60,787 nucleotides of DNA from Candidatus Saccharimonadia bacterium. GTDB taxonomy: Bacteria > Patescibacteriota > Saccharimonadia > UBA4664. The translations under genes were made by a program, and so were the position numbers. The notes under the pieces were generated by a model. The model searched no databases and was not told where the DNA came from. It was given only the letters and a program-made list of their open reading frames with translations. Positions 20,318 to 51,498 of this stretch are shown here, piece after piece (positions within the stretch are counted from its first letter, which is position 1; each line of letters starts with the position of its first letter). The stretch lies in contig DATIIV010000006.1 of the NCBI GenBank assembly GCA_035479295.1, positions 1-60,787 on the forward strand, read 5' to 3'.

Positions 20318-20464
20318 CATGCTATCTGCTATCCAGAATAAATCCCTAAAATATTCCGCTATTTGGCCAAAAGGTTTAGCGGTCTGCACAACCAAACCGC
20401 CGAGTGCATTTGCTAAGGTAGGTTGGCTGCCTACTGTCACGCTGTCTAAACGGGTCCTTGGCTT

Positions 20465-21292: not shown

Positions 21293-22464
21293 CCGTCTAT
21301 CACCTTGAATTCGCCAAGACCGGCCACAACCTTAGCGGCGGGGAAGTCTGGATGACCGAAGTCATCAAGCAACTCCAGGCTAAGGGCCTCAAAAATGTGC
21401 TGTTGACCACCGACAACGCCAAACAAACGTATGAGCGCATTGGCCTAATCGAGAGTGACACGCTTACATATCAGATAATTGAGTCGTATCAGGGTGAGCA
21501 GAAGCTGCCGCTTATCGCTTCATACGTGGCTCGCACTCTTCAGGCTTGCGCGTTGGTCCGCACGCTAAAGCTAGATCAGGATGACATGATTATTTGCCAT
21601 TCTGACTTCTTTCCAAACTCAGTTCCATTTTATGTCTTGGCCAGGCAAGGAGGTACGGCGAAGTTGTTCTGCCTGTTCCATATGTTAGCTCCGGGGCTGT
21701 TTCGCGGATACGAAGGTCACTTTACCAATCGCTTCCAGCTGCCAAAGCTTACCATTCTGCACTATCGCCTCAACCAGCGGCTCTATCGCCAGATTCTCAG
21801 AAAGACGGGTGCGGCCGTCATCACAAATAATCAGTATTATGCTCAATTGCTGGAGCGTAGCCACTTGAAGGGCCGCATTAACGTACTTAAGCGTTTTGCT
21901 GGAGCCGAACAGCACGATTCGCAGCCCGCTAAGATCTACGACATTCTTTGGATGGGGCGGTTTCATCCCCAGAAAGGTCTCCTTGAGGTGCCGGCTATTT
22001 TAGAGCAAATCAAGCGCCAGGTGCCGGAGCTTAAGGTGCTTATTCTAGGCGGAGCGGCTGACGACGATCTTAAGCAGCGGTTTCTTGATGAGATCGCTCG
22101 CCGTGGCCTAACTCAGAATGTCGAGATGAAAGGGTTTGTGGTCGGCGAGGATAAATACCGTTATATCTGTCAATCAAAGGTGTTTTTAATGACAAGTTTT
22201 TATGAGAGTTTTGGCATGGTTAATTTAGAGGCGCTCAAGAATGGCGTTCCCGTGGTGGCCTACGATTTGCCCATCTACTCGGTCTTTAGCGGGGGCATGG
22301 TGAAGGTGCCGGTGCTCGATCGAGCGGCGATGGCCGAGCAGGCAGTTCGTTTGTTGAATCAAGCGTCCACCTACCAGCAAGTCAGCGCGGAAGCACGGGA
22401 GTTTGCCTCGAGTTTCTCGTGGCAGAATACGGGCGACGAAATTTACCGGTTGCTGCTAGCATGA
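21289..22464 (+). CDS. group 1 (GT-B) glycosyltransferase
   Basis: 391 aa. WMGRFHPQKG and LMTSFYESFGMVNLEALKNGVPVVAYD motifs. 4-nt overlap with the previous gene. GC drops from here. Confidence 0.8.
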   Translation: MTVYHLEFAKTGHNLSGGEVWMTEVIKQLQAKGLKNVLLTTDNAKQTYERIGLIESDTLTYQIIESYQGEQKLPLIASYVARTLQACALVRTLKLDQDDMIICHSDFFPNSVPFYVLARQGGTAKLFCLFHMLAPGLFRGYEGHFTNRFQLPKLTILHYRLNQRLYRQILRKTGAAVITNNQYYAQLLERSHLKGRINVLKRFAGAEQHDSQPAKIYDILWMGRFHPQKGLLEVPAILEQIKRQVPELKVLILGGAADDDLKQRFLDEIARRGLTQNVEMKGFVVGEDKYRYICQSKVFLMTSFYESFGMVNLEALKNGVPVVAYDLPIYSVFSGGMVKVPVLDRAAMAEQAVRLLNQASTYQQVSAEAREFASSFSWQNTGDEIYRLLLA

Positions 22465-23576
22465 ATAACCACCGCACCAAACCCAAAAGAGTGCTCTTGC
22501 TGGGGTCATATGGACGCGGCAATATCGGCGACGATGTCTTCTTAATTGCGGCCACCAAGTTGTTGGCAGGCTATGAAATCGCCATTAACGCCGCCACAGA
22601 TGGCTCGTTACCTGCGGAGGTCCAGGACAAAGTGCTGGTGCTGCGAACCGAAGACTCGAGCGACTGGCGACAAAAAGCAAAAGTACTTTTGCAGGCTAAA
22701 GCGATTATTTACGGCGGCGGAGACCTGTGGGTGGAGCTATTTGGCGATAAACGTCCACGGCAAGCGCTCTGGAAGATGTTCTTGCTCAACCTCGCCGCCC
22801 GCATGTTAGGCAAAAAGGTGCTTTATATTGGCTGCGGTGCCGGCAAACTGGAGGGCTTCTCGCTTACGCTGGCCAGGTTATCGGCGCACCTAGCTCATGG
22901 CATAATCTTGAGAGATGAGGTTACGCGCGAGGTGCTTGCCCTCAAAGATGTGCTCGTTTTGCCCGACCTAACCATAACCCTCTGCTCGGAGGCCCCAAAG
23001 CCGGCGCCCTTGCCATTACGCCACCCGATAAAGCTCGTTATATCGCTTCTCTACTATATTCCCGAGCCGGAGCGTAATTTTGAACCTTATATTCAGCGCA
23101 TAGCAGACTGCCTTAACCAGCTTGATTCTCGTAATCGGTTCGAGATAACACTCTTGCCCATGCTGACGGCCCGCAATACGCCTCATAATGACATCTGGGC
23201 TTCCGAGCGCCTCATGGAGCGATTGGCGCCCGGTCATCAAGTCAAGATCGCCGCGCCGACCAGTGTGGGACACTGCCAGCAGATACTATCCGACGCAGAC
23301 ATCATTATCGGCTCCCGGCTTCACGCTAATATCTTGGCAACTTGGGCGGCAAAGCCGTGTATTGGCGTGGCCTATCGGCCCAAAGTCGCGCGCTTCTTTG
23401 AGCGCAATAACCTGGACCAGAACTGTCTCGATCTAGATAACCTGGGTGCACTACCGGCAGTAATGTCTCGTCTTATTAGAAATTACGATCATGCCGCCCG
23501 CCAAGCCTATGCAGTGTGGGAAGAGAATGCCAAGCAGGGGAGAGCGTATGAAAGCTTTATTCAAACACATCTTTAA
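22461..23576 (+). CDS. polysaccharide pyruvyl transferase family protein
   Basis: Track ORF 22419..23576. Start set at ATG 22461 (ATGA overlap with the upstream stop). LLLGSYGRGNIGDD near the N-terminus and IIGSRLHANI near the C-terminus match PS_pyruv_trans-type proteins. Confidence 0.7.
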   Translation: MNNHRTKPKRVLLLGSYGRGNIGDDVFLIAATKLLAGYEIAINAATDGSLPAEVQDKVLVLRTEDSSDWRQKAKVLLQAKAIIYGGGDLWVELFGDKRPRQALWKMFLLNLAARMLGKKVLYIGCGAGKLEGFSLTLARLSAHLAHGIILRDEVTREVLALKDVLVLPDLTITLCSEAPKPAPLPLRHPIKLVISLLYYIPEPERNFEPYIQRIADCLNQLDSRNRFEITLLPMLTARNTPHNDIWASERLMERLAPGHQVKIAAPTSVGHCQQILSDADIIIGSRLHANILATWAAKPCIGVAYRPKVARFFERNNLDQNCLDLDNLGALPAVMSRLIRNYDHAARQAYAVWEENAKQGRAYESFIQTHL

Positions 23577-26500
23577 TCGCTTAAGAGCGGATGATTGGCA
23601 GTCGCTCCTTATTCGCCTCGCCGCTATTGGTGTTATTGTTGCGCTCCTGGTGCTGCCATACTTCTTATTTGGCACCCGAATGCACGCCGAGGGCGACGAC
23701 TCTCACTTGTATTTTCACTACCCAGAGTTATGGATAAAAAATATCGCCAATAGCTCCTGGATGAGCTTCTCCTCGGCCGGCAAGCAGGATGAGCACTTCT
23801 TTTTGTTGCCTATCCTGTATCTATTTTGGGGCATTAAGCAACTGGGCATACCTACCTTCGTAATTCAAAACTTGAGCTTCTCGGCTATCTTTATCCTCGG
23901 TTTCGTCTTCTTCCAGAAGCTGGTGCGAGAGCTGCTTCCAAACAATAAAGACTACCGCGTAGAACTGCTGTTTGGGGCTCTCATGTACATCTTCTCGCCC
24001 ATAATTTTAATTGCACCACTTCGGTCGTATTTGGCACCTATCTGGCTGATTGGGGCCTTGCCACTTATGGTGTATTTGCTGGTGCGGTATATAAAAACCA
24101 ACCGCCCCATCTATCTCGCCATTAGCGGCCTATGCGCTGTTGTCCTTTCGGTGGCCCTAAACGCCTTGCCATGGCTATTGGGCTGTGTGCTGCCGGTAGC
24201 AGTAGGCGGTGCGGCCTTATCGGTGCTAACGTCCGGCGTCGAAAAGAGAACCTTCTTTAAGCGAACTGGCTACTGGTTGCTCGTAGTCGGCCTCTGCCAA
24301 GCCTTTTGGCTGACATCGTTTGCTGTTAGCTTGAGCGGTAGCAACTCCTTGGGCGGGCGCATATTTAACGATGATGTGAAGCAGTCGTTTAGCCGGACGG
24401 TAATAACGACCGATCGAGGCAACACGGTTATCGATCCATTGCTGAATCTGTTCCATCGCGAGATTCAGCGCGACTTTAACTGGACCTCATACACCACGTA
24501 TGTTAACTGGTATAACCATCTCATTCCGTTGACCTCAGTTTATATCGTTATTCTGCTGCTGGGAGTATTATTTGCTGGGCGTTTCGGCAGCCGAGTCTAC
24601 TGGTTTCTTTTTAGCTCATTCTTAGTGGCTTTATTCTTGTTCACCGTCCACATTGGCTGGCTCGAGAACCTGTTTCTGCTGGCTGGAGGGGTGCCTGGAT
24701 TTGCCATGTTCCGCAACTTCTATAACAAGTTTGCACTTGGCTATGTTCTGCTTTACGCCTCAATTATTACGTTCTCACTCATATATATTAAACAGGGTTT
24801 AAAACAGAGATACTTCGTCATTCCGTTGTATGTGGCGGGCTTCTTGGCTATCGCGCTGAATGCTCGGCCCTTCTTTACCGGCGAGATCATTAACGCTAAT
24901 TTGCAGGATACGCCTCATGTTCAGCGCAATCTTCATATGCCTCAAGAGTACCTGGATTTTATGCAGCAGTTAGGCAAAATGGTGCCATCGAACTCTAACG
25001 TCTTTGATGTGCCGTTTGGCACGTCGGCGTATACCATTATTCCGGAGACGGGCTCAGACCATGCTTATTCCGGTAAATCGCCGGTTAAGCTGTTCAGCGG
25101 TATAAGCGATTTTAGCGGCAATCTCTCCTTCCCTCCGGCCATCGCTCGTCAAGTTAACGCTGCCATTATGCAGCGCGATTACGTTAAGCTGCGCCATCTG
25201 CTTAGCTCGTTGCATATTAACTACATCTTCGAGACCAAGAACATTCCGGCTGAGCTCATTCAGTCATCGTTATTTGATGATCGGGTACTTATTAAGACGG
25301 ATGCCGAGTTTCGTCAGCAACTCTACGGGCAGAAGCTCTTAACCAGCGCGGATGGAAATTACGTCTTATACAGTCTCAAGCAGACTCAGGAGGCGTTGCC
25401 AGCTGATAGTTTTGTAGCAGCTACTACCGCCTATGCGGTTTCGCCTCCGCTTCTAGATGCAAACGGCAATATGTTGTCTGGGTCGCTTGGCTACTTTTTA
25501 GATGTGGCGCATATAGGCCTAAAAGAGGGCGCCCAGGGCAGTCAATTAGCGGACGCCAAGGTTAAGCCGTTCACCCTGGGTGACGCTATCGCCGATGCCG
25601 CCAAGAGCACTATCGAGGTGCCGCATAATAATCTATATCAGGTAGTTAGCAGCGACTTAACTGGCGTCTTAGGCCTTCAAAACTTGGCTAAGGCCACGTA
25701 CACTCATGATCAGATTCCGCCGCAAACCGTCTCGGTGGGCCAGCTGTCGCCCGATAATCTCATTCAAATAAATAATGAGTTTTATCCTCCATCTAAGCTA
25801 AACGGAGCTGTTATTAGCGATACAGACAATATTACCGTCTTGCAAAAGAGCGGCGAGCTAACAGGAGGCACCACGAATGTTTACCAGCACTGGGTGCCCG
25901 GCGACTGTACGGCCGAGGATAAAGGCAAACTGGTGGCGGTGGCTCATGATGTGGCCGCCGATGTCATTACTCTGACCGCCAAGAAGGATCATAATGCTTG
26001 TCTTTTCTCGGACATGCCAACTAAGGTTTCGGCGAGTTACGTGGTGAGCTTTGAGTACAACACCAATATGACCGGGGCCTCGCTGGGCATTACGCAGCGC
26101 GACAAGCTGACCGACGCAAATAGAACGATTGGCTCGCCGTTTCAGGCTGGTCCGTCTAATCAGTGGAACTCATTTAGCTATACCTTTAGCGCCCAGGATG
26201 GTACCGCTCGTATCTACTTATTCTCTGGCCGGAGTCCGCAGCAGGCAGTAACGAGTTTTCGTAATATTCAGATCAGTGAGTACGACCCTACTCGGACCGT
26301 TTCCCTTGCTAATAGTGGCTTCTCCGATCCAGAGGTCGGCGAATACTCGGCTGCAGCGATGAACTCTGCGCCTGTGTCGGCTACTAATGTGCCGGTTCCG
26401 CCCCTATCCGAGTGGCGCCAAGGAGATTGTAATGCTCTCGATGATAGCTTAACCACAGACTTTACTCACTTGGACGATGGTATTCAGCTGAGCGCTAAGG

Positions 26501-27249
26501 ATGGCCACAACGCCTGCATTCGGTTGGTGACCGATATAGATACTAACTACTCCTATACAATGGGTTTCGATTATTATGCAACTGGCTCGAGTGGTGCCTT
26601 TAAGATGGCCTATATCAATGACCCTGGCTTTCCACTAACAAAGTATTCTGAGCCGGAAGTGCAAAACAGCTGGCATCATGTCACGATTAACCCTTCTTCT
26701 CCGGACGGGGCTAAGCGACTGACTCTTTACTTGTACTCAGGGACGAATAGTAAGGGTACGGCTCAGATAAAATATCGCAACCTTACCATCAAGCGAGCAC
26801 CAAAAACGTTCTCTGAGAACCTGATTGTGACGCAGGCTGCAGCCGCTCATACCCCGCCTACGGTTAGCAGTACCGAGATTGCACCTCACTTATATAACGT
26901 TAAGGTAGCCGCGGCTAAGTCGGGCTTCTTCCTCAATTTTTTAGAGCCGTATCATGCGGGCTGGCAGCTTTCCGTGGTTAGCGGCAAGCGTGCTAATTCA
27001 GTTATGCCTCATGTGACCGCTAATGTGCAGACCAACGCTTGGTACATTGACGTTAATACCCTCTGCAAAGAGCAGAAGCGTTGTGCGCAGAACCCAGATG
27101 GCTCGTACAATATTGAGCTAACGGCTACCTTTACGCCCGAGAAGTACTTTTATGTTGGACTTGGCCTAAGCGCACTGGCTGTGCTGAGCTGCATTGGTTA
27201 TCTCGTCTGGTGTTGGCGTCGAAAGCACTGGTTGCTAAGGCTATTTTAG
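23548..27249 (+). CDS. very large integral membrane protein: N-terminal GT-C-like polytopic domain plus two CBM-like modules plus a C-terminal TM anchor
   Basis: Track ORF 23491..27249. Start set at MKALFKHIF (23548), preceded by GGGGAGAG. About 12 or more TM segments in the first 480 aa or so. A large soluble region has a duplicated module. Terminal TM is LGLSALAVLSCIGYLVWCW. The architecture recalls AftD-like arabinofuranosyltransferases (inference only). Confidence 0.8.
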   Translation: MKALFKHIFNRLRADDWQSLLIRLAAIGVIVALLVLPYFLFGTRMHAEGDDSHLYFHYPELWIKNIANSSWMSFSSAGKQDEHFFLLPILYLFWGIKQLGIPTFVIQNLSFSAIFILGFVFFQKLVRELLPNNKDYRVELLFGALMYIFSPIILIAPLRSYLAPIWLIGALPLMVYLLVRYIKTNRPIYLAISGLCAVVLSVALNALPWLLGCVLPVAVGGAALSVLTSGVEKRTFFKRTGYWLLVVGLCQAFWLTSFAVSLSGSNSLGGRIFNDDVKQSFSRTVITTDRGNTVIDPLLNLFHREIQRDFNWTSYTTYVNWYNHLIPLTSVYIVILLLGVLFAGRFGSRVYWFLFSSFLVALFLFTVHIGWLENLFLLAGGVPGFAMFRNFYNKFALGYVLLYASIITFSLIYIKQGLKQRYFVIPLYVAGFLAIALNARPFFTGEIINANLQDTPHVQRNLHMPQEYLDFMQQLGKMVPSNSNVFDVPFGTSAYTIIPETGSDHAYSGKSPVKLFSGISDFSGNLSFPPAIARQVNAAIMQRDYVKLRHLLSSLHINYIFETKNIPAELIQSSLFDDRVLIKTDAEFRQQLYGQKLLTSADGNYVLYSLKQTQEALPADSFVAATTAYAVSPPLLDANGNMLSGSLGYFLDVAHIGLKEGAQGSQLADAKVKPFTLGDAIADAAKSTIEVPHNNLYQVVSSDLTGVLGLQNLAKATYTHDQIPPQTVSVGQLSPDNLIQINNEFYPPSKLNGAVISDTDNITVLQKSGELTGGTTNVYQHWVPGDCTAEDKGKLVAVAHDVAADVITLTAKKDHNACLFSDMPTKVSASYVVSFEYNTNMTGASLGITQRDKLTDANRTIGSPFQAGPSNQWNSFSYTFSAQDGTARIYLFSGRSPQQAVTSFRNIQISEYDPTRTVSLANSGFSDPEVGEYSAAAMNSAPVSATNVPVPPLSEWRQGDCNALDDSLTTDFTHLDDGIQLSAKDGHNACIRLVTDIDTNYSYTMGFDYYATGSSGAFKMAYINDPGFPLTKYSEPEVQNSWHHVTINPSSPDGAKRLTLYLYSGTNSKGTAQIKYRNLTIKRAPKTFSENLIVTQAAAAHTPPTVSSTEIAPHLYNVKVAAAKSGFFLNFLEPYHAGWQLSVVSGKRANSVMPHVTANVQTNAWYIDVNTLCKEQKRCAQNPDGSYNIELTATFTPEKYFYVGLGLSALAVLSCIGYLVWCWRRKHWLLRLF
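25891..26805 (+). repeat. two paralogous modules of about 132 aa (carbohydrate-binding-module-like) inside the giant membrane protein
   Basis: Module 1 (25891-26289) reads WVPGDCTAEDKG...ITLTAKKDHNACLF...YLFSGRS...FRNIQISEY. Module 2 (26413-26805) reads WRQGDCNALDDS...IQLSAKDGHNACIR...YLYSGTN...YRNLTIKRA. Confidence 0.7.
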
Positions 27250-27251
27250 GC

Positions 27252-28871
27252 ATGAAGCAGTGGTTGGCTTGGCTTGGCTATGGACTGTTGGGGCTGCTCA
27301 TCTTGGGCCCGCTGCTGCGGCCGGGCTACATCTTAGCTCTTGATATGAGTTGGGTGCCTCAGCTGCGCTCACCGGCTGCATTTACCAGTAGCTGGCCATT
27401 TTATGAGTTACTGTGGCTGGTGGGGCTGGTGCTGCCTAGCATGGTAATTCAGAAGCTGGTACTCGTAGCGTGCCTAGCCGTGGCGGGTGTGGGTGCCTAT
27501 TGGTTGGTGCGAAGAGCTGCGTTATTGAATAATGAGGCGGCTGGGTGTCTGGCCGGGGTTTTCTACATCGTAAACCCATTTGTCTATACGAGGCTAATGG
27601 CGGGCCAATATCTGGTATTGCTAGGTTATGCCTTGTTGCCTTGGTTTGTGGGAGTGCTGTGGCGCTTGCTGGATCGGCCGAGTTGGCGGCTAGCCGCGAT
27701 ATTGGCTGCTCTTGCGGCGGCGATAGGGTTTGTGTCGATTCATGACATCGGCCTGATGGCGGTGGTGAGTTTGGTATCGGCCGTCGCCGTGGGGTGGGGT
27801 CGTGGGCGACGGCTCTGGCAGATTGCGTCCTGGCTGGGTGCCGTTGCAGCTGGCTGGTTGGCGGCTAACCTCTTTTGGCTAGTGCCCTTTATTTTGGGCC
27901 GATCGCCCGAGGCTCGGCAGGTAGCAGGTTTTGGAGCCGATCAGTATGTTGCTTATGCTACTACGAGTGACGGTGTGGGCGTCTCATTTAATACGCTGAT
28001 ACTTCAGGGCTTCTGGGACGACCCCCATGGCTCTTATGTCCTCCCCAGCTCACGTGCGCTGTTCTGGGTGGCGGTTGCCTTGTTGGCTGTGTTGATAATT
28101 TTAGGCCTGTGGCGAACCGTGCGAGAGCGTGATCGGCTCGGCTTGGCACTGACCGCTGCCGGTGTCGTGGGTTGGGCTCTGGCGATGGGAGTAGCGGGTC
28201 CCGGTCTGCTAGGCTTACTCTCGGATTGGCTATTACGTCACGTGCCATTTTACGAGGGTTATCGCGAGCCGCAAAAATGGTTAGCGTTATCGGCTTTAGC
28301 CTACGCCTACCTGGCGGGTATCGGGTTGGCTTGGGCGCTAACACGACTCCGCGACTGGGTGAAGGAGGCGACGGCACTGGCGGCTTCGATGTTGCCATTA
28401 GCAGCGGTACCAATGCTGCTCTGGGGTGCCGGCGGTCAGCTACGCAGCGCAGACTACCCGGCCAGCTGGTACGCACTGGCGCAGCAGCTGGCTGCCGAGC
28501 CAGCCAATGGGCGAATCCTGGCGCTACCTTGGCACGAGTATATTGGGCTTAATTTTGCGGGTCGGACGGTGGCCAATCCAGCACCAGCCTTCTTTGGCCC
28601 TCGCCTGGTCTCGAGCGATAATCCCGAGCTGCTCGGCGCCAGATCAACTACCCGACAGCCGCTTAATGACGCCATTGAAACCCAAGTATTGGCCGGCTCA
28701 TACTACGTGCACGATGCCGGCTTCAAGCTGGCGACTCTGGGTGTATCCGAGGTTATCTTGTTTAAGCAAGGCGATTGGACATACTACGACTGGCTAAACC
28801 ATCAAACTGATCTGGTGCTAGTGGCTGAGTCGAGCGGTTGGAAGCGTTATCGTGTTAAGGAGATTAAATGA
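27252..28871 (+). CDS. polytopic membrane protein, GT-C-like (putative glycan polymerase/transferase)
   Basis: Track ORF 27210..28871. Start set at MKQWLAWLG (27252), 3 nt after the upstream stop. Many TM segments plus a C-terminal soluble domain of about 130 aa. High GC again. Confidence 0.65.
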   Translation: MKQWLAWLGYGLLGLLILGPLLRPGYILALDMSWVPQLRSPAAFTSSWPFYELLWLVGLVLPSMVIQKLVLVACLAVAGVGAYWLVRRAALLNNEAAGCLAGVFYIVNPFVYTRLMAGQYLVLLGYALLPWFVGVLWRLLDRPSWRLAAILAALAAAIGFVSIHDIGLMAVVSLVSAVAVGWGRGRRLWQIASWLGAVAAGWLAANLFWLVPFILGRSPEARQVAGFGADQYVAYATTSDGVGVSFNTLILQGFWDDPHGSYVLPSSRALFWVAVALLAVLIILGLWRTVRERDRLGLALTAAGVVGWALAMGVAGPGLLGLLSDWLLRHVPFYEGYREPQKWLALSALAYAYLAGIGLAWALTRLRDWVKEATALAASMLPLAAVPMLLWGAGGQLRSADYPASWYALAQQLAAEPANGRILALPWHEYIGLNFAGRTVANPAPAFFGPRLVSSDNPELLGARSTTRQPLNDAIETQVLAGSYYVHDAGFKLATLGVSEVILFKQGDWTYYDWLNHQTDLVLVAESSGWKRYRVKEIK

Positions 28872-30278: not shown

Positions 30279-31697
30279 ATGCTCGCCGCTTCATTCAAAC
30301 GTACGAAAATTGTGGCTACTATCGGCCCATCGTCTAACACGCCCGAGGTGCTGGAGCGGATCATGCTGGCCGGCGCTAATGGCTTGCGGCTGAACTTTTC
30401 GCACGGCACGCACGAGCAGCATGGTGACGTTATTAAGTTGGCGCGCCAGCTCAGCGCCAAGCTAGAGCGGCCGGTCGCCATGATCGCCGACCTGCAAGGC
30501 CCCAAGATTCGGGTTGGTTCGCTGCCCAGCGACGGCTTGCCATTTGTGCGCGGCCACGTGGTGCGGTTTGAGTATGGCGCCGACTACGAGGATCACAACA
30601 TCATTCCGGTGCAGCACGACGTTAGCAAGTACCTCAAGCCTGGCGAGCGCATCTTTCTGCGCGATGGCCAGATCGAGGTCGAGGTGGAGAAGATCGAGAA
30701 AACGCTCATTACGGGCAAAGTGCTCAATCCCGGCCTGCTCTACAGCAATCAAGGCATGAATTTGCCCGATACCGATCTAGGCGGCGATATCTTAACGCCC
30801 AAGGATGTGGCCGATATTGAGTTTGCCGTTAAGCAAGACGTAGATTATGTGGCGCTGAGTTTCGTGCAGACCGCTCAAGACATCATTAATTTGAAGGAAC
30901 GCCTGACCAAGCTGGGGGCCAATGTGCAGGTGATCGCCAAGATCGAGACGGCTGCGGCGGTTGACAATCTGGAGGAGATCTTTGCCGTCACCGATGCCGT
31001 GATGGTGGCGCGCGGCGATCTAGCCATCGAGACCAAGCCCGAGGCCGTGCCGGCGACGCAGCGCCGGATGGTGGAGCTGGCGCGCCAGCAGCGCAAGCCA
31101 GTGATCGTGGCCACGCAGATGCTCGAGAGCATGATCCAGTCACCATCACCAACCCGCGCCGAGGTGAGCGATGTGGCTACCGCCGTGCTAGAGGGCGCCG
31201 ACGCCGTGATGTTGAGCGGCGAGACGGCTATGGGGCTCTTCCCGGTCGAGACAGTGCAGATGATGAAGCGGGTTATCCTGTACACCGAGCGCGAAGAGCT
31301 AGCCCAGCAGGCAGCCACCACGCGTCACCTGGAGGACGAGAGTGGCCGCGGCAACGCCATCTCGGCCGCGGCCGTGGTGCTGGCTCACCAGCTGCCGGCC
31401 AAGGTTATTATTGCCGAGACGGCCACCGGCCAGACCGCCCGCAACATCTCGAGCCTGCGGCCGGTGGCGCCCATCATTATGGTGACGCATCAGCCGCGGG
31501 TCTACCACCAGCTGGCCATCGTGTGGGGCGGCAAGTCCTACCTGCACGACCAGCCCGCCGAGGCAGCCGAGCACGTCACGCGCCAACTTCGCGCCGCCGG
31601 CAACATTGCCAAGGGCGACGCCCTGGTGGTGGCCTCGGGCAACCAGCCTGGCGTTACGGGCGGCACGAGCAATGTGTCGATTCGGGTGGTGCAGTAG
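30279..31697 (+). CDS. pyk: pyruvate kinase
   Basis: KRTKIVATIGPSS, NGLRLNFSHG, MVARGDLAIE and ATQMLESM motifs. Start chosen at ATG 30279 after GAGGAA (the track starts at TTG 30261). Confidence 0.93.
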   Translation: MLAASFKRTKIVATIGPSSNTPEVLERIMLAGANGLRLNFSHGTHEQHGDVIKLARQLSAKLERPVAMIADLQGPKIRVGSLPSDGLPFVRGHVVRFEYGADYEDHNIIPVQHDVSKYLKPGERIFLRDGQIEVEVEKIEKTLITGKVLNPGLLYSNQGMNLPDTDLGGDILTPKDVADIEFAVKQDVDYVALSFVQTAQDIINLKERLTKLGANVQVIAKIETAAAVDNLEEIFAVTDAVMVARGDLAIETKPEAVPATQRRMVELARQQRKPVIVATQMLESMIQSPSPTRAEVSDVATAVLEGADAVMLSGETAMGLFPVETVQMMKRVILYTEREELAQQAATTRHLEDESGRGNAISAAAVVLAHQLPAKVIIAETATGQTARNISSLRPVAPIIMVTHQPRVYHQLAIVWGGKSYLHDQPAEAAEHVTRQLRAAGNIAKGDALVVASGNQPGVTGGTSNVSIRVVQ

Positions 31698-31727
31698 GCC
31701 GACTCGTCGTGCTTAGACAGCCCGGCC

Positions 31728-31755
31728 TTTACATTTGGCCTTATTGCGATAGAAT
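31728..31755 (+). promoter_or_regulatory. cassette promoter copy 1 (TTTACA-16 nt-TAGAAT)
   Basis: cCTTTACATTTGGCCTTATTGCGATAGAATC. It shares flanking and spacer bases with the copies at 33219, 34181 and 34999. Confidence 0.6.
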
Positions 31756-31798
31756 CTAACCCGGCCCAGTCTCCGGAAGCAAGGAGCTATCAGTCACC

Positions 31799-32395
31799 AT
31801 GCGATTTTCGCGAGTAGTGCGGCTTCTGGCAGTGTGCAGCATTGGCCTGGCATCGGTCGGCTGTAGCGCCGACTCGCCAACCCCCACAAGCACCGTGATT
31901 ACCACATCACCGCCGCTCAGTTCGTACCAGGGCTTGCCGGCCGACGTGACGACGCAGTACTACTCTTCCAAAAGCGACTCGTTTGCGATTGGATTTCCGG
32001 TCCTCAAAACCAGCTCCGGAAATAGCCCCATTATTGCCGCGTCAAACACGACCTCGGATGGCGCCCCGGTAAACGGCTATATGAGCGATTTGAGCGTAGC
32101 TACGCTGGGAGTCTACTCGGTATTCGTTGAAGGGGACCTTCATCCCGATCTGCCGCTCGCTCAAATCAATGATGGTTGTCACGGTCAGCCTGGGTACAAG
32201 CAGAGGGCGCTAAGTAATTTTGGCGGCAATGGAGTGGCGGCTATGCGTTCAGACTGCCTCAAGTTGGAGGGCCGGCAAGCCACGGTTATCTTGCGGTATC
32301 AGGATCATATCTACCGGATTGGCGCGGATCATGCCGACCGGATAGGTTCGGCTAGCGTTGAGCAGTTCTTTAGCTCATTTAAGTTGGTCGGCTGA
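31799..32395 (+). CDS. secreted/lipoprotein-like hypothetical protein (L1)
   Basis: 198 aa. AAGGAG SD. Signal sequence with ...GLASVGC (imperfect lipobox). The C-terminus VEQFFSSFKLVG resembles that of the 35082 lipoprotein. Confidence 0.7.
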   Translation: MRFSRVVRLLAVCSIGLASVGCSADSPTPTSTVITTSPPLSSYQGLPADVTTQYYSSKSDSFAIGFPVLKTSSGNSPIIAASNTTSDGAPVNGYMSDLSVATLGVYSVFVEGDLHPDLPLAQINDGCHGQPGYKQRALSNFGGNGVAAMRSDCLKLEGRQATVILRYQDHIYRIGADHADRIGSASVEQFFSSFKLVG

Positions 32396-32430
32396 GGCTC
32401 AACGATTGCTCGTACTCGAGAGAAGGTAGC

Positions 32431-33144
32431 ATGACCGAATTGCTGTATGCCTTGGTAAGCCCGGCCGGCCGGATCTGCCCCGGCTTCTGGACCATTGGCT
32501 TTGACGTAAGGCGGCCGCTCAAGCTGGATCAAGCGGAGCAGCTGAGGCGGGTGGCGCGCCAGTCTGAGGGTGCTGACTTGGCTCCAATCAGGTGGTATGG
32601 CCTCGGTCCGGGCGCGACCCAGCCGATGATCATGGCCAACTCTGCTATGACTGAGCAGGGTGCGCGTGAGCTCGTGCGATTGGTAGCGGAAGCCCTGGGC
32701 CGGTCGGCCGAGATCATGGTGCTGCCGCTGACTGATACAGCGGTGTACGTGCAGTACAGCCCTGCACGCGAGAGCTGTGAGCGGGTGGCTATCCGATTGC
32801 CTACTCAAGCTCTGCTTACGCCTTACCAGCTCCGGACCCTGCGAGGCTTCTTGGGTTACGATCTGCGAGCCTTCGAGGCCTTGAACTCAGCTGGTAAGAC
32901 TGACAACGATGAACCGATCTTGCTGTACCTCATCTCGCGGCCGGATGTCTGGGGGCATGCCGTGCTCCTGCCGTTTGGGCGGCTAGAAGAAGTCATCCAG
33001 CGCTGGGCCAAGCTGTTTGGCCTTCAGCTGGAAGTGGCCGAGGGCGAGGAATCAGACGAGGATCTGGTCGACCGAACTCGTGCTCGTGTTCAGCCCTTGG
33101 TTACCGCTGGGCTACCCACTCCTCCCAAGATCGATAGTCCCTGA
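32431..33144 (+). CDS. hypothetical cytoplasmic protein, paralogue family member P1
   Basis: 237 aa. GAGAAGG SD. Shares EQGARELVRLVAEALGRSAEIMVLPLTDTAVYVQYS and RWAKLFGLQLEVAEGE blocks with the next gene. Confidence 0.75.
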   Translation: MTELLYALVSPAGRICPGFWTIGFDVRRPLKLDQAEQLRRVARQSEGADLAPIRWYGLGPGATQPMIMANSAMTEQGARELVRLVAEALGRSAEIMVLPLTDTAVYVQYSPARESCERVAIRLPTQALLTPYQLRTLRGFLGYDLRAFEALNSAGKTDNDEPILLYLISRPDVWGHAVLLPFGRLEEVIQRWAKLFGLQLEVAEGEESDEDLVDRTRARVQPLVTAGLPTPPKIDSP

Positions 33145-33199
33145 CCGCTCGCGCTGAAGCTCCCGGCTTGTTGGCCGCGGTCGGGGGCTTCAGCATTGG
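33139..33199 (+). terminator. cassette hairpin repeat copy 1 (overlaps the stop codon of P1)
   Basis: CCCTGACCGCTCGCGCTGAAGCTCCCGG...TCGGGGGCTTCAGC with a 12-bp stem. The TGA inside CCCTGACC is the P1 stop codon. Confidence 0.6.
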
Positions 33200-33218
33200 T
33201 TAATGCAGTAACTGTCTC

Positions 33219-33246
33219 TTTACATTTGATCTGATTTCGTTAGAAT
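33219..33246 (+). promoter_or_regulatory. cassette promoter copy 2 (TTTACA-16 nt-TAGAAT)
   Basis: tCTTTACATTTGATCTGATTTCGTTAGAATC. Confidence 0.6.
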
Positions 33247-33290
33247 CAAACGCGGTCCAACTCCTGTCGTCTACCGAGAGAAGGTCTGGT

Positions 33291-34010
33291 GTGACCAATA
33301 CACTGCGTGCAGTCATTAGCTTGGCTCGGGAAGCCAATCCTAACACGCTGATGATTGCCTTCAATTTTGGGCATACACTGACCGAGGACATGGCTCACCA
33401 GCTCAAAGCTCTAATCGAGGAAGTTGGTGCGCCAGCGCTGGCCCCCACGGAGTGGTATGACCGCGTCATGAGCGGTGGTGGGCTGAGTCTGATGGTCAAC
33501 CCCGCCACCACGGAGCTAGAGGCTCGCCAACTTGCTCAGAACGTAGCCGACCGGCTGGGTTATGTCGCCGAGATTGTCGTCTTGCCGCTGGCCGATATGA
33601 CGGTGAGGTTGCGCTACAGCCTATCTCGGGCGCAGCCCCAGGTAGTGGTGGTGCGATTCCCCAAGATGCTGTCAGGCTTTGTGATGAACCTTCTCTTGAG
33701 CGTTCCGGTGACGTTTCTTGTGTCACAGGCGAACCTTCAGGGGCCTGCCGTGGCTAATGGAGTGCCGGTGCGAATTATTAGCTGTCCGCGGGCTTGGCTC
33801 ATTCCGCCGGTGCTGTCTCCCAAAATGCTCGAGATGCTGCTTCAGCACTGGCAGCTCTGGCTTGGCTTTCAATGGGAGGTGAGTGAGGGCGATATGCTAG
33901 GCGAGGACGCGATCGATAGCGGTAGGGCCGACCTGTTGCCGCTGCCGGATGGCCAGAGCTGGTCCCAGGAGTGGCAGGACTACGCGGTCCTGACCCGCAT
34001 GGGCTTTTAA
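33291..34010 (+). CDS. hypothetical cytoplasmic protein, paralogue family member P2
   Basis: 239 aa. GTG start after GAGAAGG. ELEARQLAQNVADRLGYVAEIVVLPLADMTVRLRYS and HWQLWLGFQWEVSEGD align with P1. Confidence 0.75.
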   Translation: MTNTLRAVISLAREANPNTLMIAFNFGHTLTEDMAHQLKALIEEVGAPALAPTEWYDRVMSGGGLSLMVNPATTELEARQLAQNVADRLGYVAEIVVLPLADMTVRLRYSLSRAQPQVVVVRFPKMLSGFVMNLLLSVPVTFLVSQANLQGPAVANGVPVRIISCPRAWLIPPVLSPKMLEMLLQHWQLWLGFQWEVSEGDMLGEDAIDSGRADLLPLPDGQSWSQEWQDYAVLTRMGF

Positions 34011-34067
34011 AGACTCAATTACTCACCAAACTTCATTGACTCGTTCCGCTTGACTGCCTGTATCCGC

Positions 34068-34127
34068 CCCTGACCGCTCGCGATGAAGCCCCTGGCTCTC
34101 GCCTCGCGGTTGGGGGCTTCATCGTGG
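34068..34127 (+). terminator. cassette hairpin repeat copy 2
   Basis: CCCTGACCGCTCGCGATGAAGCCCC...GGGGGCTTCATCGTGG with an 11-bp perfect stem, 58 nt after the P2 stop. Confidence 0.6.
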
Positions 34128-34180
34128 CGGGTGGTGCGTGCTGCGATACTCACTGGGGCTGGCCGTCTGCGCTCCGGGAC

Positions 34181-34208
34181 TTTACATTCGGCCTCACTGC
34201 GTTAAAAT
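34181..34208 (+). promoter_or_regulatory. cassette promoter copy 3 (TTTACA-16 nt-TAAAAT)
   Basis: aCTTTACATTCGGCCTCACTGCGTTAAAATC. It lies inside the N-terminal extension of track ORF 34138, which argues for the downstream start. Confidence 0.6.
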
Positions 34209-34251
34209 CAATCTGGTTCATTTAAGAGTCTTGGCTACAGGAAGGCCCGTT

Positions 34252-34908
34252 GTGGAAGAGCCCATCTTGCGGATGGTTATTGCCCGACCATATGGTCGCA
34301 CCGATGCCTGGGTCCTTAAGGCCGACTTAGGCGCCGAGCCAGAGCCCAGTACGAACGTTCATCTGGTGGAGGTGCTCAAGACCGCGTTCTCTGCTCGTCC
34401 TTTGGATGGCTCCTATGAGTTTCGCGACAAAGGACGGCAGTTACGGGTATGGCTCAATGACGCCGATCCAAACGGCGATCAAGCCGTGGCGCTCGTCGAG
34501 CAGATAGCTTGTGCCTTAATGAGCTCGGTAGAGTGCCTGTTGCTGCCCTCCGGAGGCCTAACGATGGCTACTTCGTGGTCTCCTCATGCGACCAGCCTGG
34601 GTTGGGTCGTGAAGATTGAGTTAGATAAGGCCTTGTCCCGGGAGCCCTATGAGGTCCTGGCGGAATATTTAGTCCGAGCCATTCGGTCTTGTTCAGAGAC
34701 CAGCGGGGCACAGTGCCGAGAATGGGGTCAGGTACTGCTGTGCTGGCGTGACCAGGCTTGCTTGGCACGAGCTCGCTTAACCGAGTTGGACTTAGTAGGA
34801 GTCGTGACCGGCTGGGCCAATGCGATGGAGGCCACGATAGCGTTTACGTTTCCCGAATTGACGATACGCGACCTTGCCCGCATGGGTCTGGCACGTCGAT
34901 TACCATAA
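34252..34908 (+). CDS. hypothetical cytoplasmic protein, divergent paralogue P3
   Basis: Track ORF 34138..34908, trimmed to GTG 34252 (after AGGAAGG). The N-terminus EEPILRMVIARP then aligns with TNTLRAVISLA of P2. The middle block QAVALVEQIACALMSSVECLLLPSGGLTMATSWS aligns with the family core. Confidence 0.65.
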   Translation: MEEPILRMVIARPYGRTDAWVLKADLGAEPEPSTNVHLVEVLKTAFSARPLDGSYEFRDKGRQLRVWLNDADPNGDQAVALVEQIACALMSSVECLLLPSGGLTMATSWSPHATSLGWVVKIELDKALSREPYEVLAEYLVRAIRSCSETSGAQCREWGQVLLCWRDQACLARARLTELDLVGVVTGWANAMEATIAFTFPELTIRDLARMGLARRLP

Positions 34909-34998
34909 ATCTGCCCAGAGTTCAGCCAGGCCTCCGCCACAGGCGATGACCTAGCCGGCGGCTGCGCGGTCACCGGCTTGGATCTCTAGTACCTATCC

Positions 34999-35027
34999 TT
35001 TACATTTAGCAGAGGATATGGTACAAA
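34999..35027 (+). promoter_or_regulatory. cassette promoter copy 4 (TTTACA-17 nt-TACAAA)
   Basis: cCTTTACATTTAGCAGAGGATATGGTACAAAG. It is preceded at 34943-34981 by a degenerate copy of the hairpin repeat. Confidence 0.5.
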
Positions 35028-35081
35028 GTCAAAGGTTCTACAGGCTTAGTTTGACACTCAAACCAGAAGGGATCTTCCTCG

Positions 35082-35753
35082 ATGAGGCGGATTGCCAAGC
35101 TGTGGCCGGCTGTGTTGTTACTGGTGCTGGCTGGCTGTACCGAGCCCACCAGTGACGGTACCTCAGCGCCATCGACGCCGGTGTCGGCCGATCCGTGTGC
35201 GGCACCGGACATTCTGTCTGGTCCTATCGGAACGGACGGCGTCGGCCCCACGTACCAGCCACCGGCCGACGTACACAAGGTGACGTTCGGGACCCCGTGC
35301 GGTTACTTCCAGGCCGAGTTTCCGACAGCAGCTTCGCAAAGCTCGGTGCTGGAGACTACGCTGAAGGACGATGATGGGCGTCCCACTAAGGACTATCACA
35401 CCATCCTGAACAACTACCAGCTGCAGGGCCAGCCGGTCGCCTGCCCGCAGTGCGAGGAATTTTCGGTCTTCGTGCACCCCGAAACGAGCCCCGGTAGCTC
35501 GCTGGAGTCCTACGCTCAAGACTGCTCGAACAAGGCCGATTACCAGCATCTCCATGTGAATACCTTCAACCACACTGGCGAGCCGGCCTTCATGGCCAAC
35601 TGCCGGCCGTTCGGCTCATCTGGCCTAACGCGTCAGCTGGCTATCCTGCGCCATCAAGCCCCGGACGGAACCCTGTTCCGCTACGAGGTAATGGCTACCG
35701 GCACCGCAGCCGACGTCCTCGCCTTCGTGAACTCCTTCCAGCTGAATAGCTGA
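35082..35753 (+). CDS. lipoprotein (L2), related to L1
   Basis: 223 aa. Canonical lipobox LVLAGC. The C-terminus VLAFVNSFQLNS parallels L1. Confidence 0.75.
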   Translation: MRRIAKLWPAVLLLVLAGCTEPTSDGTSAPSTPVSADPCAAPDILSGPIGTDGVGPTYQPPADVHKVTFGTPCGYFQAEFPTAASQSSVLETTLKDDDGRPTKDYHTILNNYQLQGQPVACPQCEEFSVFVHPETSPGSSLESYAQDCSNKADYQHLHVNTFNHTGEPAFMANCRPFGSSGLTRQLAILRHQAPDGTLFRYEVMATGTAADVLAFVNSFQLNS

Positions 35754-35761
35754 CGGACTGC

Positions 35762-35821
35762 CCCTGACTGCTCGCGATGAAGCCCCTGGCTTCGTCCCCG
35801 CGGTCGGGGGCTTCATCGTGG
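35762..35821 (+). terminator. cassette hairpin repeat copy 3
   Basis: CCCTGACTGCTCGCGATGAAGCCCC...GGGGGCTTCATCGTGG, 9 nt after the L2 stop. Confidence 0.6.
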
Positions 35822-36065
35822 TTGGGCGGCGGGGCGGCACATTCGTTTGGGGCTAGTATGCAAATATTTTGCGTAGTCCTGCACTCGGTGAAGATTGGGC
35901 GCACCAGGGCGACTAGCTTGCTTTACCAAAGCCATAACAACGACTTTATCAGGAAATCCGATAACTGCATCGTCAAGTGTGCCACATTTTTGCATAGTAC
36001 ATATATAATGGGTGGCCTATCGGTCGGCGCCGAGCGGTCAGGCGACAACCTGCCCCCACCCGCGC

Positions 36066-36100: not shown

Positions 36101-37300
36101 ATGCACAAGAAGACGGTTCGCGACATCGATCTAAAAGGGAAGCGCGTGCTGGTGCGCGTGGATTACAATGTGCCGATTAAGGACGGCAAAGTCGGCGACA
36201 CGCTGCGCATTCGGGCCTCGTTCGAGACGCTTAATTATCTGCTAGAGCAGGGCTGCGCGCTAGTATTAATGAGTCACCTGGGCGAGCCCAAGGGCGCGCC
36301 GGACCCGCAGTACAGCCTGCGGCCGGTGGCGGCCAAAGCGGCCGAGCTGCTGGGCCACGACATCACGTTTTATGACGACTGCGTGGGCGAAGCGGTGGAG
36401 CAGGCCGCCAAGGCGCTGCAGCCCGGCCAGATGATGATGCTAGAGAACGTGCGTTTCCACCAGGAGGAGCTCGACAACGACGCCGCCTTTGCTAAGCGGC
36501 TGGCCGGGCTGGGCGAAGTGTACGTTAACGACGCCTTTGCCGTGGAGCATCGCAAGCAGGCCTCGGTGGTGGGTGTGGCGGCCTACTTACCGGCAGTGGC
36601 CGGATTGTTGGTTGAGAAAGAGGTTAATTATATTGCTGGCGCCCTAGAGGCGCCGCAGCGGCCGCTCGTAGCGGTGCTGGGTGGCGCTAAGGTCTCGACC
36701 AAATTGCCCCTGCTCAAGCATCTCATGCCCAAAGTCGACGTGATGGTCCTGACCGGCCCGATCGCCAATACCTTTGCGCTCGCTCAAGGGCAGCCGATAG
36801 GCCAGAGCGTGGCCGAGCCCGACATGGTAGATGATGTGAAGGAGCTGCTAGAGCTGGCCCGGCGCGAGAACACCGAGCTGCTAATGCCCGACGAAGTGGT
36901 GGTCTCGCAGGAGTTGCGGGCGGTTAAGCATATGCGTACGGTGAAGGCCGCGGCGGTGCAGCCGGACGACTACATTGTGGACGCAGCGCCGTCGTACGCC
37001 AAGCAGTTTACGGCCGCGCTGTATGACTTTTTGGACCTGGACGGCCGCAGCACCGTCATTTGGAACGGTCCGCTTGGCCTCACCGAGGTGCCCGAGTTTA
37101 CTCACGGTACGCAGGCCATGGCCGAGGCCATTGTGGCCGTTAAGGGCACCACCATCGTGGGCGGTGGCGATACGGCGGCGTTTGTGGACGCGGCCGGCCT
37201 GCACGACAAGTTTACTTGGGTCTCCACCGGCGGCGGTGCCTCGCTCGAGCTCATGGCCGGCAAAGAGTTGCCCGGCGTGGCCGCTCTGCTCGATATGTAG
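36101..37300 (+). CDS. pgk: phosphoglycerate kinase
   Basis: KRVLVRVDYNVP, MSHLGEPKG and GGGDTAA motifs. 399 aa. Confidence 0.95.
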   Translation: MHKKTVRDIDLKGKRVLVRVDYNVPIKDGKVGDTLRIRASFETLNYLLEQGCALVLMSHLGEPKGAPDPQYSLRPVAAKAAELLGHDITFYDDCVGEAVEQAAKALQPGQMMMLENVRFHQEELDNDAAFAKRLAGLGEVYVNDAFAVEHRKQASVVGVAAYLPAVAGLLVEKEVNYIAGALEAPQRPLVAVLGGAKVSTKLPLLKHLMPKVDVMVLTGPIANTFALAQGQPIGQSVAEPDMVDDVKELLELARRENTELLMPDEVVVSQELRAVKHMRTVKAAAVQPDDYIVDAAPSYAKQFTAALYDFLDLDGRSTVIWNGPLGLTEVPEFTHGTQAMAEAIVAVKGTTIVGGGDTAAFVDAAGLHDKFTWVSTGGGASLELMAGKELPGVAALLDM

Positions 37301-37332
37301 CTCGTTTGACGGCCGGCGAGCTTTATCATAGT

Positions 37333-37989
37333 ATGGCCTCATTGCCGATGCTCTGGACGACGGACGGAGGACTGACAATGAATGTGAAGCGGCCCAGAGA
37401 GGGCGGCATGGCTCCGCTGTGGGCGGGTGCCCAGAGGTTGGTCCAGCTAGCTGACGGTTACGGCGGCTACCGCTTAGCTCAGCGCGCTGCCGTGGGGAGG
37501 CTCCTCAGGCTTGATCTCGATTGCCGGATTGCCGCCCTCACCATGGTGGCCGATGGCACGGCGGCCGAACTGACGCCGCGAGGCAAGGTCGGCGTAATTC
37601 TGTCTATCGACTTTATGTGGGTGAGTTGCACCGGGGTGATCTCGCTCTGGGCCGAGACTCCCGGCGGCCGCTCCACGCCGGAGATGCCGCCGCTGCTCCG
37701 GCTGGAGCCACCGGACAACCCGGATTTCAAGCTCGCCATGTGGCTGATTTTGGACGAGCTGGGCATTCGCCGGGTGTCTCACATGGAGGCGGTGGCGTAC
37801 ACTCAGCTTGGCTGGGACGGGTGGGCCATGAAGTGCAGCCACCGCCTTAGCCAGACGGGGCTATCTCACATCGTGCGACCCTCGGAGCAGGAGGCCTTGC
37901 TGGTCTTTCGCAATGGTCAAACCATGAGCCTGAGCATTATCACGCTCAACCCCGGCAGCCCGATGCTGGAGCTTCGCCCGGGGCCATGA
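37333..37989 (+). CDS. hypothetical protein inserted between pgk and tpiA
   Basis: Track ORF 37216..37989 overlaps the pgk 3' end. Trimmed to ATG 37333 (MASLPML). The block IAALTMVADGTAAEL...MPPLLRLEPPDNPDFKLAMWL resembles MMALMMWDPDGAGRL...MMPYLRLELPDNDGPLELRVGL of the 57324 gene. Confidence 0.6.
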   Translation: MASLPMLWTTDGGLTMNVKRPREGGMAPLWAGAQRLVQLADGYGGYRLAQRAAVGRLLRLDLDCRIAALTMVADGTAAELTPRGKVGVILSIDFMWVSCTGVISLWAETPGGRSTPEMPPLLRLEPPDNPDFKLAMWLILDELGIRRVSHMEAVAYTQLGWDGWAMKCSHRLSQTGLSHIVRPSEQEALLVFRNGQTMSLSIITLNPGSPMLELRPGP

Positions 37990-38018
37990 TCGAGCCACAG
38001 CTCTGAGCCGGCCTTCCG

Positions 38019-38059
38019 AATCCCGCCAAGCCGCCCACGTCGGTGGTTTGGCGGGATTT
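38019..38059 (+). terminator. hairpin terminator after the inserted gene
   Basis: AATCCCGCCAA...TTGGCGGGATT perfect 11-bp stem followed by TTGCTCGTTT. Confidence 0.6.
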
Positions 38060-38105
38060 GCTCGTTTGGTGCGGCGCCGGCTTTGCCCATGTTGCCCATA
38101 AGCGG

Positions 38106-41164: not shown

Positions 41165-41196
41165 CCCTCGACGACCGATGTAATCTGCGGTCGCTT

Positions 41197-41233
41197 GGCG
41201 CCCCGGAAGCAGCGTGACTGTTTCCGGGGCGCC
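41197..41233 (+). terminator. strong GC hairpin
   Basis: GGCGCCCCGGAAgCAG-cgtga-CTGtTTCCGGGGCGCC. Lies inside the 5' extension of the pcrA track ORF. Confidence 0.55.
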
Positions 41234-41288
41234 TACCATACCCTGGGCCGGCGGCATGTCAACTCTAGTTCGGCCGCGTTCGGCCAGG

Positions 41289-51465: not shown

Positions 51466-51498
51466 GCGGGGTTGGGACGTTAGTCCCGAGGTGAACCT

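Follow-up and report, generated by a model that had tools for sequence, protein, structure and literature searches.

A probable tandem-duplication array of lineage-restricted genes between pyk and pgk in a Saccharimonadia genome

In the chromosome of a soil Candidatus Saccharimonadia bacterium (TM7), a stretch of 60,787 nucleotides (nt; contig DATIIV010000006.1, hereafter the window, 60.8 kb) carries an array of five + strand open reading frames (ORFs) between the glycolytic genes pyk and pgk (Table 1). These encode two lipoprotein-like proteins (LpA and LpB) and three cytoplasmic proteins (P1, P2, and P3). The preferred explanation, to which a probability of roughly 0.6 is given, is that of a lineage-restricted, dispensable accessory cluster that arose on the spot as small, self-contained expression units were duplicated in tandem. 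Its structural and evolutionary part is highly probable, while the part that concerns functional role is tentative and rather doubtful. In kind, the array is an ordinary case of lineage-specific gene birth and decay and offers no pointer to a new molecular mechanism.

Four transcription units would make up the array, namely promoter 1-LpA-P1-hairpin 1, promoter 2-P2-hairpin 2, promoter 3-P3, and promoter 4-LpB-hairpin 3, in which promoters 1-3, the ribosome-binding block of P1 and P2, and the three hairpins are sequence copies of one another. These non-coding blocks are 69-89% identical, whereas the proteins that they frame retain only 20-34% amino acid (aa) identity with synonymous sites saturated, the one trait of the array that is somewhat out of the ordinary. 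Blocks so much better conserved than the genes point to selection extending beyond the promoter hexamers, as under a shared regulatory input, or to gene conversion between the copies. Co-regulation through such an input would be the simplest reading that the sequences imply, with gene conversion as the alternative.

Two assemblies made independently, contig CAYVKC010000008.1 (GCA_964451975.1) and the Logan assembly of SRR9179560, contain the array in identical form, and in both of them all five ORFs are intact and called by gene callers. The host is a Saccharimonadia metagenome-assembled genome (MAG), and its nearest pgk relatives are all Saccharimonadia/Saccharibacteria MAGs with 57-69% aa identity.

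Promoter, ribosome-binding, and hairpin blocks

The sequence CTTTACATT is present exactly four times in the window, always on the + strand and at the first position of a promoter entry of Table 1, against a chance expectation of 0.23 (four copies were reached in 0/100 shuffles). Three of these sites belong to homologous 42-nt blocks, 69-81% identical, which have spacer and +1 sequence in common. Blocks 1-3 read TTTACA-N16-TAGAAT/TAAAAT and lie 43-44 nt 5' of the start codons of LpA, P2, and P3; as in sigma-70 promoters (hexamers near TTGACA/TATAAT, spacer of 16-18 nt, position upstream of a gene), 10 of the 12 consensus positions are matched around a 16-nt spacer. The pattern TTTACA-N15-19-TANAAT does not recur elsewhere in the window, and among the sites listed in the scanned 29-40 kb stretch the array promoters are the nearest to consensus; they appear to be of near-consensus sigma-70 type. 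The earlier sequence-only reading had counted four copies of one promoter-like block; the four CTTTACATT sites and the three homologous blocks bear this out, but promoter 4 has only the -35 element in common with the others. In spacer, -10, and leader it represents a different block, with orthologues in the LpB promoters of two relatives (contigs L038 and L031).

An exact 11-nt ribosome-binding block, CGAGAGAAGGT, is found in the window only before P1 and P2. P1 starts 35 nt after LpA and lacks a separate promoter block; the two genes are probably co-transcribed, because neither a promoter nor a hairpin separates them.

The three 62-nt hairpin blocks, 76-89% identical, are the sole copies within the window and fold into stems of about 17 bp (-35 to -45 kcal/mol, z-scores of -3.2 to -4.7 against shuffles). 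When the three window copies are compared with two from L038, 94% of the stem is paired, one A-U to C-G change is compensatory, and the variation falls mostly in the loop, five sequences being too few for statistical proof of covariation. A terminator scan called none of the three blocks, whose 3' tails (CATCGTGG or CAGCATTGG) do not supply the U tract that follows the stem-loop of canonical intrinsic terminators. Several other genes of the window are likewise followed by long, perfect, GC-rich hairpins that lack a U tail and differ in sequence from one another, and such hairpins (-42 to -53 kcal/mol) are found in many intergenic regions of this genome, as at 831-900, 41166-41235, 49931-50000 on the - strand, 51421-51490, and 57246-57315 on the - strand. 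The hairpin type is therefore ordinary here and only the sequence identity of the three copies is special. This suggests that tail-less terminators are the norm for the host organism, and the array hairpins, in line with the remaining long GC-rich hairpins of this genome, may terminate transcription without a tail or stabilise 3' ends. Tail-less "I-shaped" GC-rich hairpin terminators are a feature of high-GC Gram-positive bacteria. The likeness lies in the long, perfect, GC-rich stem directly after the stop codon, in the lack of a U tract, and in the similar hairpins behind other window genes; unlike I-shaped terminators, the three copies, for which termination is putative, share their sequence.

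The shared sequence includes a 15-nt unpaired 5' flank, CCCCTGACYGCTCGC (33137-33151, 34066-34080, and 35760-35774), which is conserved as well as the stem. The TGA within this flank in copy 1 is the stop codon of P1, and the flank may have been left over from the end of an ancestral gene or may serve to bind a protein or an RNA.

A degenerate fourth hairpin (34905-34990) had been proposed in addition to the three blocks. It was rejected: its folding z-score of -0.39 is no better than that of shuffles, and its alignment to the block is matched by 22-52% of shuffled sequences. With three copies in 60.8 kb, all at this locus, the element does not behave as a dispersed repeat of the repetitive extragenic palindrome (REP) or miniature inverted-repeat transposable element (MITE) type, of which many scattered copies would be expected. 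The 17 matches that a metagenome scan returned for the hairpin 5' block were all due to chance and none had the stem, and a scan of viral contigs for the stem sequence gave five, due to chance or to an unrelated element. Searches of the locus against Rfam, at the gathering threshold and at E <= 1, detected no RNA family.

Table 1. Positions of the array features and flanking genes in the window
Feature	Positions	Strand	Description
pyk	30279..31697	+	left flank, conserved; Pfam PK
promoter block 1	31727..31768	+	TTTACA-16-TAGAAT, conserved spacer and +1 region; predicted to drive LpA-P1
LpA	31799..32395	+	198 aa, signal peptide, relaxed lipobox SVGC, LpB paralogue
ribosome-binding block CGAGAGAAGGT of P1	32417..32427	+	identical to that of P2
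P1	32431..33144	+	237 aa, cytoplasmic, orphan family
hairpin block 1	33137..33198	+	overlaps P1 stop codon; ~17-bp stem; no U tract
promoter block 2	33218..33259	+	TTTACA-16-TAGAAT; predicted to drive P2
P2	33291..34010	+	239 aa, GTG start, P1 paralogue
hairpin block 2	34066..34127	+	62-nt repeat after P2
promoter block 3	34180..34221	+	TTTACA-16-TAAAAT; predicted to drive P3
P3	34252..34908	+	218 aa, GTG start, divergent probable P member
promoter 4	34998..35027	+	TTTACA-17-TACAAA; predicted to drive LpB
LpB	35082..35753	+	223 aa, canonical lipobox LAGC at residues 16-19
hairpin block 3	35760..35821	+	after LpB; orthologous to L038 1920-1983
pgk	36101..37300	+	right flank, conserved; Pfam PGK

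Two orphan protein families

P1 and P2 are clear paralogues, with 32% identity over 228 aa (E 1.6e-28). The P family as defined here, by full-length, in-register alignment of proteins of about 215-240 aa, consists of P1, P2, P0003-P0006, and a pair encoded on contig L063; its outside members align with E values of 6e-22 to 1e-3, and P3 weakly. When a profile of P1+P2 was run in HMMER against 1.84 billion representative proteins, the only matches besides P1 and P2 themselves were P0003 (E 6e-22), P0004, and P0005, while word-indexed profile searches of 5.8 billion clusters added one further relative, P0006. The family is recognised by the motifs AEIxVLPLxD, VRLP, W...G, and EDxVDS, and AEIxVLPL, VRLP, W192, and EDxVDS are kept by P1, P2, and the outside members across genomes of 43% and 60% GC. 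For P3, membership is probable. Its pairwise E values (0.019 with P1, 1e-4 with P0005, 0.003-0.005 with P0003 and P0004) come from alignments that are always in register, and a family profile built without it matches over its full length and in register (E 1e-5, 18.5 bits), the best of 175 decoy ORFs of the window reaching E 0.63 with the same profile. The three cytoplasmic paralogues of the sequence-only reading are thus upheld, firmly for P1 and P2 and with probability for P3.

An AlphaFold2 model of P1, obtained from a 7-sequence alignment, has a predicted local distance difference test (pLDDT) score of 81.5 and a predicted template modelling (TM) score of 0.76 and comprises two alpha/beta lobes with a disordered acidic tail. 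Foldseek comparison of the model with PDB and BFVD found no full-length neighbour and no full-length TM score > 0.3; the best matches were generic alpha/beta half-domain sandwiches of about 100 residues (EutS, Rpb11, S6, and Prp), with query-normalised TM scores < 0.3. The invariant residues A86, P99, W192, and D211 do not form a catalytic-type set, and the proteins are acidic, with an isoelectric point of about 5. Because conserved catalytic-type residues are absent, P1-P3 would be non-enzymatic cytoplasmic binding or scaffold proteins.

LpA and LpB are likewise paralogous (24% identity over 135 aa, E 7e-7). The C-terminal echo that had been noticed between them is real, both carrying an F..SF.L motif, and Cys127/Cys153 of LpA align with Cys148/Cys174 of LpB, a conserved pair that is consistent with an extracytoplasmic location. 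The canonical lipobox [LVI][ASTVI][GAS]C is present in LpB (LAGC) and in its orthologues (LTAC in P0009, LAAC in L031). LpA has SVGC, which is not a canonical lipobox. Both would be exported, membrane-anchored, disulfide-containing envelope proteins. The word-indexed searches yielded a single Lp relative, P0009. Top Foldseek matches of the LpB model were SciW, DcrB, Tsi3, PsbP, and Mog1, all non-significant (E >= 2.7e-3, TM score <= 0.44), and a PDB profile match to LpqN (E 0.056) covered the signal-peptide region only; a fold of the Mog1/PsbP/DcrB/Eag/Tsi3 type for LpB can be taken as a lead and nothing firmer.

Searches of Pfam, NCBIfam, PHROG, PADLOC, and PDB sequences with the five proteins and the family alignments gave nothing above noise, in agreement with the earlier statement that no known family is recognisable. 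The best PADLOC score was that of P2 against Csx15 (13.9 bits, E 0.011), the lipoproteins were not found by Pfam to belong to the Lpp-LpqN, DcrB, or PsbP families, and literature searches on lipoprotein paralogues and variable regions of Saccharibacteria brought up nothing relevant. P and Lp are therefore orphan families, restricted to a handful of related metagenome contigs. With a confidently predicted fold and no detectable structural neighbours, P could be prioritised of the two families defined here.

The pyk-pgk interval in related genomes

The order pyk-pgk-tpi-orf38928 is conserved across Saccharimonadia, with a pyk-pgk gap of 7-90 nt in several relatives, 342 nt in L005, and 615 nt in L003. 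Others carry unrelated cargo of 2-3.4 kb in this gap: a 3.4-kb gene set in L007 (2573-5942) and a pair of ATP-binding cassette (ABC) transporter genes in L009 (7845-10001) and L013 (7298-10001). Between pgk and tpi, L008 (11184-13181) and L026 (11207-13197) hold a gene for a repeat-rich surface protein of 665 aa, which in L026 seems to be frameshifted. Unrelated cargo in both gaps argues that they act as insertion hotspots.

The very close relative represented by the JGI contig L038 (3.5 kb; Pyk and Pgk 98.9% and 96.5% identical in aa sequence to those of the window) has a decayed array in its pyk-pgk interval, in the same order and with the repeat blocks still in place. In its 5' part, promoter 1 is mutated (TTTATA ... 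TAGATT) and LpA is frameshifted and has lost an internal segment; a hairpin copy comes next. In the middle, an intact promoter 2 block precedes what is left of a P gene, its final ~25 codons (EDYVDSLEGGELPAPYGKSFYRL and stop codon). The 3' part retains a promoter 4-type block, an intact LpB with 65-68% identity, and a hairpin copy (1920-1983). Of the array genes this sister retains only LpB, LpA and the P genes being lost; rapid divergence and lineage-specific decay probably followed duplication in an intergenic hotspot.

By the Nei-Gojobori method, the number of synonymous substitutions per site (dS) between the window and L038 is 0.39 for pyk, 0.49 for pgk, and 0.62 for LpB, and the ratio of nonsynonymous to synonymous rates (dN/dS) is 0.02, 0.04, and 0.32, respectively. 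Similar dS values in flanks and array genes argue that the array was inherited vertically. Judged by dN/dS, its proteins evolve about ten times faster than the flanks, yet they are constrained and partly dispensable, and a ratio of about 0.3 indicates relaxed purifying selection. When the locus was called an amplified and diversifying module, amplification and divergence were correctly seen, given the local duplicate blocks, the diverged paralogues, the independent tandem duplication of the P gene in L037/L063, and the lability against a close relative; diversifying selection is not demonstrated.

More distant layouts help to order the events. In L031, a P2-like gene (P0003) is followed by a promoter 4-type block and an LpB-like lipoprotein gene (38% identical product), so the P-LpB adjacency predates the split between the window and L038; P3 and its promoter are probably a later insertion or duplication. 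P0003 itself (L031 1-40) is without the N-terminal ~60 residues of the family, with an in-frame stop just upstream of its start, and may be truncated or frameshifted, or the contig end may fall inside the gene. A fairly close relative, L033 (GtrA-like gene 81% identical to window 236-700), carries one P gene (P0004), which lies at a different locus and whose promoter region and hairpin are unrelated. The array blocks are on this evidence local duplicates and not the boundaries of a mobile cassette, and the mobile-cassette idea was rejected for this reason. In a lineage of 43% GC, L037 and L063 (a 1.18-Mb contig) each carry two full-length P paralogues in tandem, with a repeated TGCTATACT -10 block at each gene and a hairpin between them, so that the whole monocistronic unit was duplicated there independently.

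In structure, the array amounts to monocistronic units that were duplicated in tandem, in the ordinary way, within an intergenic hotspot that is variable. None of the outcomes that had been named in advance as fatal to the sequence-only reading, such as non-significant paralogue alignments or matches to well-characterised families, was encountered. Taken together, the intact array, the relics in the sister, and the independent tandem pairs give a before-and-after view of the birth and decay of a gene family in a reduced genome.

Possible roles, alternatives, and genomic setting

The most likely role of the cluster would be a non-essential, highly expressed function at the envelope or the interface with the environment, under relaxed constraint. 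Genomes of Saccharibacteria are tiny, and the keeping of five amplified genes behind the strongest-looking promoters of a 60-kb stretch suggests usefulness in at least this lineage. Several points weigh against the explanation as a whole. The envelope or interface role is drawn from localisation signals, and promoter and terminator function from consensus matches and folding, with hairpins that have no U tract of the canonical kind. Block counts cover 60.8 kb of the genome, and copies further off are possible. P3 is assigned on weak scores (18.5 bits) with degenerate motifs, and having no hairpin and the lowest GC content at third codon positions (GC3) it may be in decay. LpA has a relaxed SVGC/SAGC in place of a canonical lipobox, and the LpB model is poor (pLDDT 46), its fold being unreliable. 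Finally, L038 is a 3.5-kb metagenome contig in which mis-assembly is possible, although its deletions lie outside the repeat blocks.

Tandem arrays of paralogous lipoprotein and accessory genes that arise by local duplication in variable chromosomal hotspots are exemplified by the LpqN/LpqT-type lipoprotein paralogues of mycobacteria. There, as here, the lipoproteins are small (about 200-230 aa) and exported, have a signal peptide and a lipobox, occur as paralogues in one neighbourhood, evolve fast, and are lineage-restricted, and a Mog1/PsbP/DcrB-like beta-sheet fold, of which there are weak hints, would extend the likeness. In contrast to those arrays, LpA and LpB do not belong by sequence to Lpp-LpqN, DcrB, or PsbP, they are interleaved with unrelated cytoplasmic paralogues, and their regulatory blocks are better conserved than the genes.

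An improbable alternative is an array of orphan immunity genes, in which P1-P3 would be cytoplasmic and LpA/LpB extracytoplasmic immunity proteins against polymorphic toxins of competitors or hosts, duplicated in an arms race. Tandem divergent paralogues, each with a strong promoter of its own (predicted), fast evolution, and presence that varies among close relatives would fit, as would P proteins that are small, acidic, and devoid of conserved catalytic-type residues; the same run of small divergent paralogues, turnover between close strains, and lack of catalytic motifs are found in the orphan immunity arrays of the type VI secretion system (T6SS; tsi), of contact-dependent inhibition (CDI; orphan cdiI), and of LXG/WXG systems. 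Tsi3, an immunity protein of the T6SS, and Eag/SciW chaperones also rank among the top PDB matches of the low-confidence LpB model, but these matches are non-significant and come from the model with a pLDDT of 46. No toxin domain and no Rhs/WXG/LXG, secretion, or CDI gene was found in the flanking 10 kb, no toxin-immunity or defence family is matched in PADLOC or Pfam, a dN/dS of 0.3 shows no overall positive selection, and single-copy P genes elsewhere have unrelated neighbours. Unlike genes of immunity arrays at the 3' tail of an operon, those of the array have their own strong promoter and terminator (predicted).

Equally hard to credit, as a more specific version of the surface role, is a dedicated, co-regulated expression scaffold, formed by the conserved promoter and hairpin blocks, for a novel two-component module of episymbiotic Saccharibacteria, in which surface LpA/LpB would make contact with the host cell or the environment and pair with the new-fold cytoplasmic P proteins, and quick diversification and turnover would track host or competitor specificity. 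If it held, P would represent a novel fold that plays a part in the epibiotic way of life. Surface or host interaction and immunity, both of which had been raised earlier, are conjectural, and what speaks for them are the signal peptides, the extracytoplasmic Cys pair, and the fold matches of low confidence and no significance.

It is very unlikely that the locus is largely non-functional DNA in neutral decay, with ORFs left by chance after an old duplication. Three units are pseudogenised or deleted in the sister L038, P3 is very divergent and without a terminator, and GC3 of the array genes is below that of the neighbouring glycolytic genes. Against this stand five ORFs that are intact in two assemblies, a P1 fold that is confidently predicted from a shallow alignment, motifs kept from GC-43% to GC-60% genomes, the dN/dS of LpB, and promoters still at 10/12 consensus positions.

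Least likely of all is mobile or foreign DNA (a cassette array, what remains of a prophage or island, or an insertion bounded by MITEs, with the repeated blocks as recombination or transposition sites): genes bounded by repeated blocks in a hotspot with other cargo in relatives, the lowered GC3, and an adjoining ~180-nt insertion with inverted repeats would suit it, but no integrase, transposase, or phage gene lies within +/-10 kb, no other mobility gene is nearby, PHROG gave no match, scans of viral contigs brought up no relative of P or Lp, the array matches the flanking genes in dS and the surroundings in overall GC, a close relative has other signals around a P gene that lies elsewhere in its genome, the metagenome scan gave only chance matches to the hairpin block, and the blocks look like promoters and terminators in the right places and orientation. 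The resemblance to integron cassette arrays, a row of small unrelated or divergent ORFs with an imperfect palindromic element after each, does not extend to the defining parts, a tyrosine-recombinase integrase with attI and attC cassettes that are normally promoterless; here each unit has its own promoter (predicted), and the array hairpins do not accompany P genes at other loci.

The surroundings of the array comprise genes for glycosyltransferases, pyk, pgk, tpi, and UvrD. Pfam matches (PK and PGK) confirm the flanks as pyk and pgk. Each of pyk, pgk, and tpi has a GAGGA/GAGGG Shine-Dalgarno-like motif 6-8 nt before its start and a promoter-like site 25-30 nt upstream; these genes have short leaders and are not leaderless, and the contrast that had been drawn between the array and leaderless neighbours was mistaken. 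Upstream of the array, at 16955-28871, lies a cell-envelope glycan cluster with genes for a GT4 glycosyltransferase, a polysaccharide pyruvyl transferase, a 1233-aa AftD-like GT-C enzyme, and a 539-aa membrane protein, so that the array borders envelope-biogenesis genes.

Between hairpin 3 and the pgk promoter, a ~180-nt AT-richer stretch (35830-36010), missing in L038, contains a 19-nt imperfect inverted repeat (35854-35872 / 35981-35999); it has no second copy in the window and no Rfam match, and an insertion of the MITE type or a gene for a small RNA may account for it. The pgk-tpi gap holds a second lineage-specific monocistronic insert (37306-38075), composed of a promoter-like site (37306-37334), orf37378 (37378-37989, 203 aa, without a family match), and a long hairpin (38006-38075). 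Considered as further family members, orf37378, orf38928, and orf29447 were rejected for want of similarity. The N-terminus of orf37378 is 56% identical in L038 with a dN/dS of 0.69, which shows that it evolves even faster than LpB.

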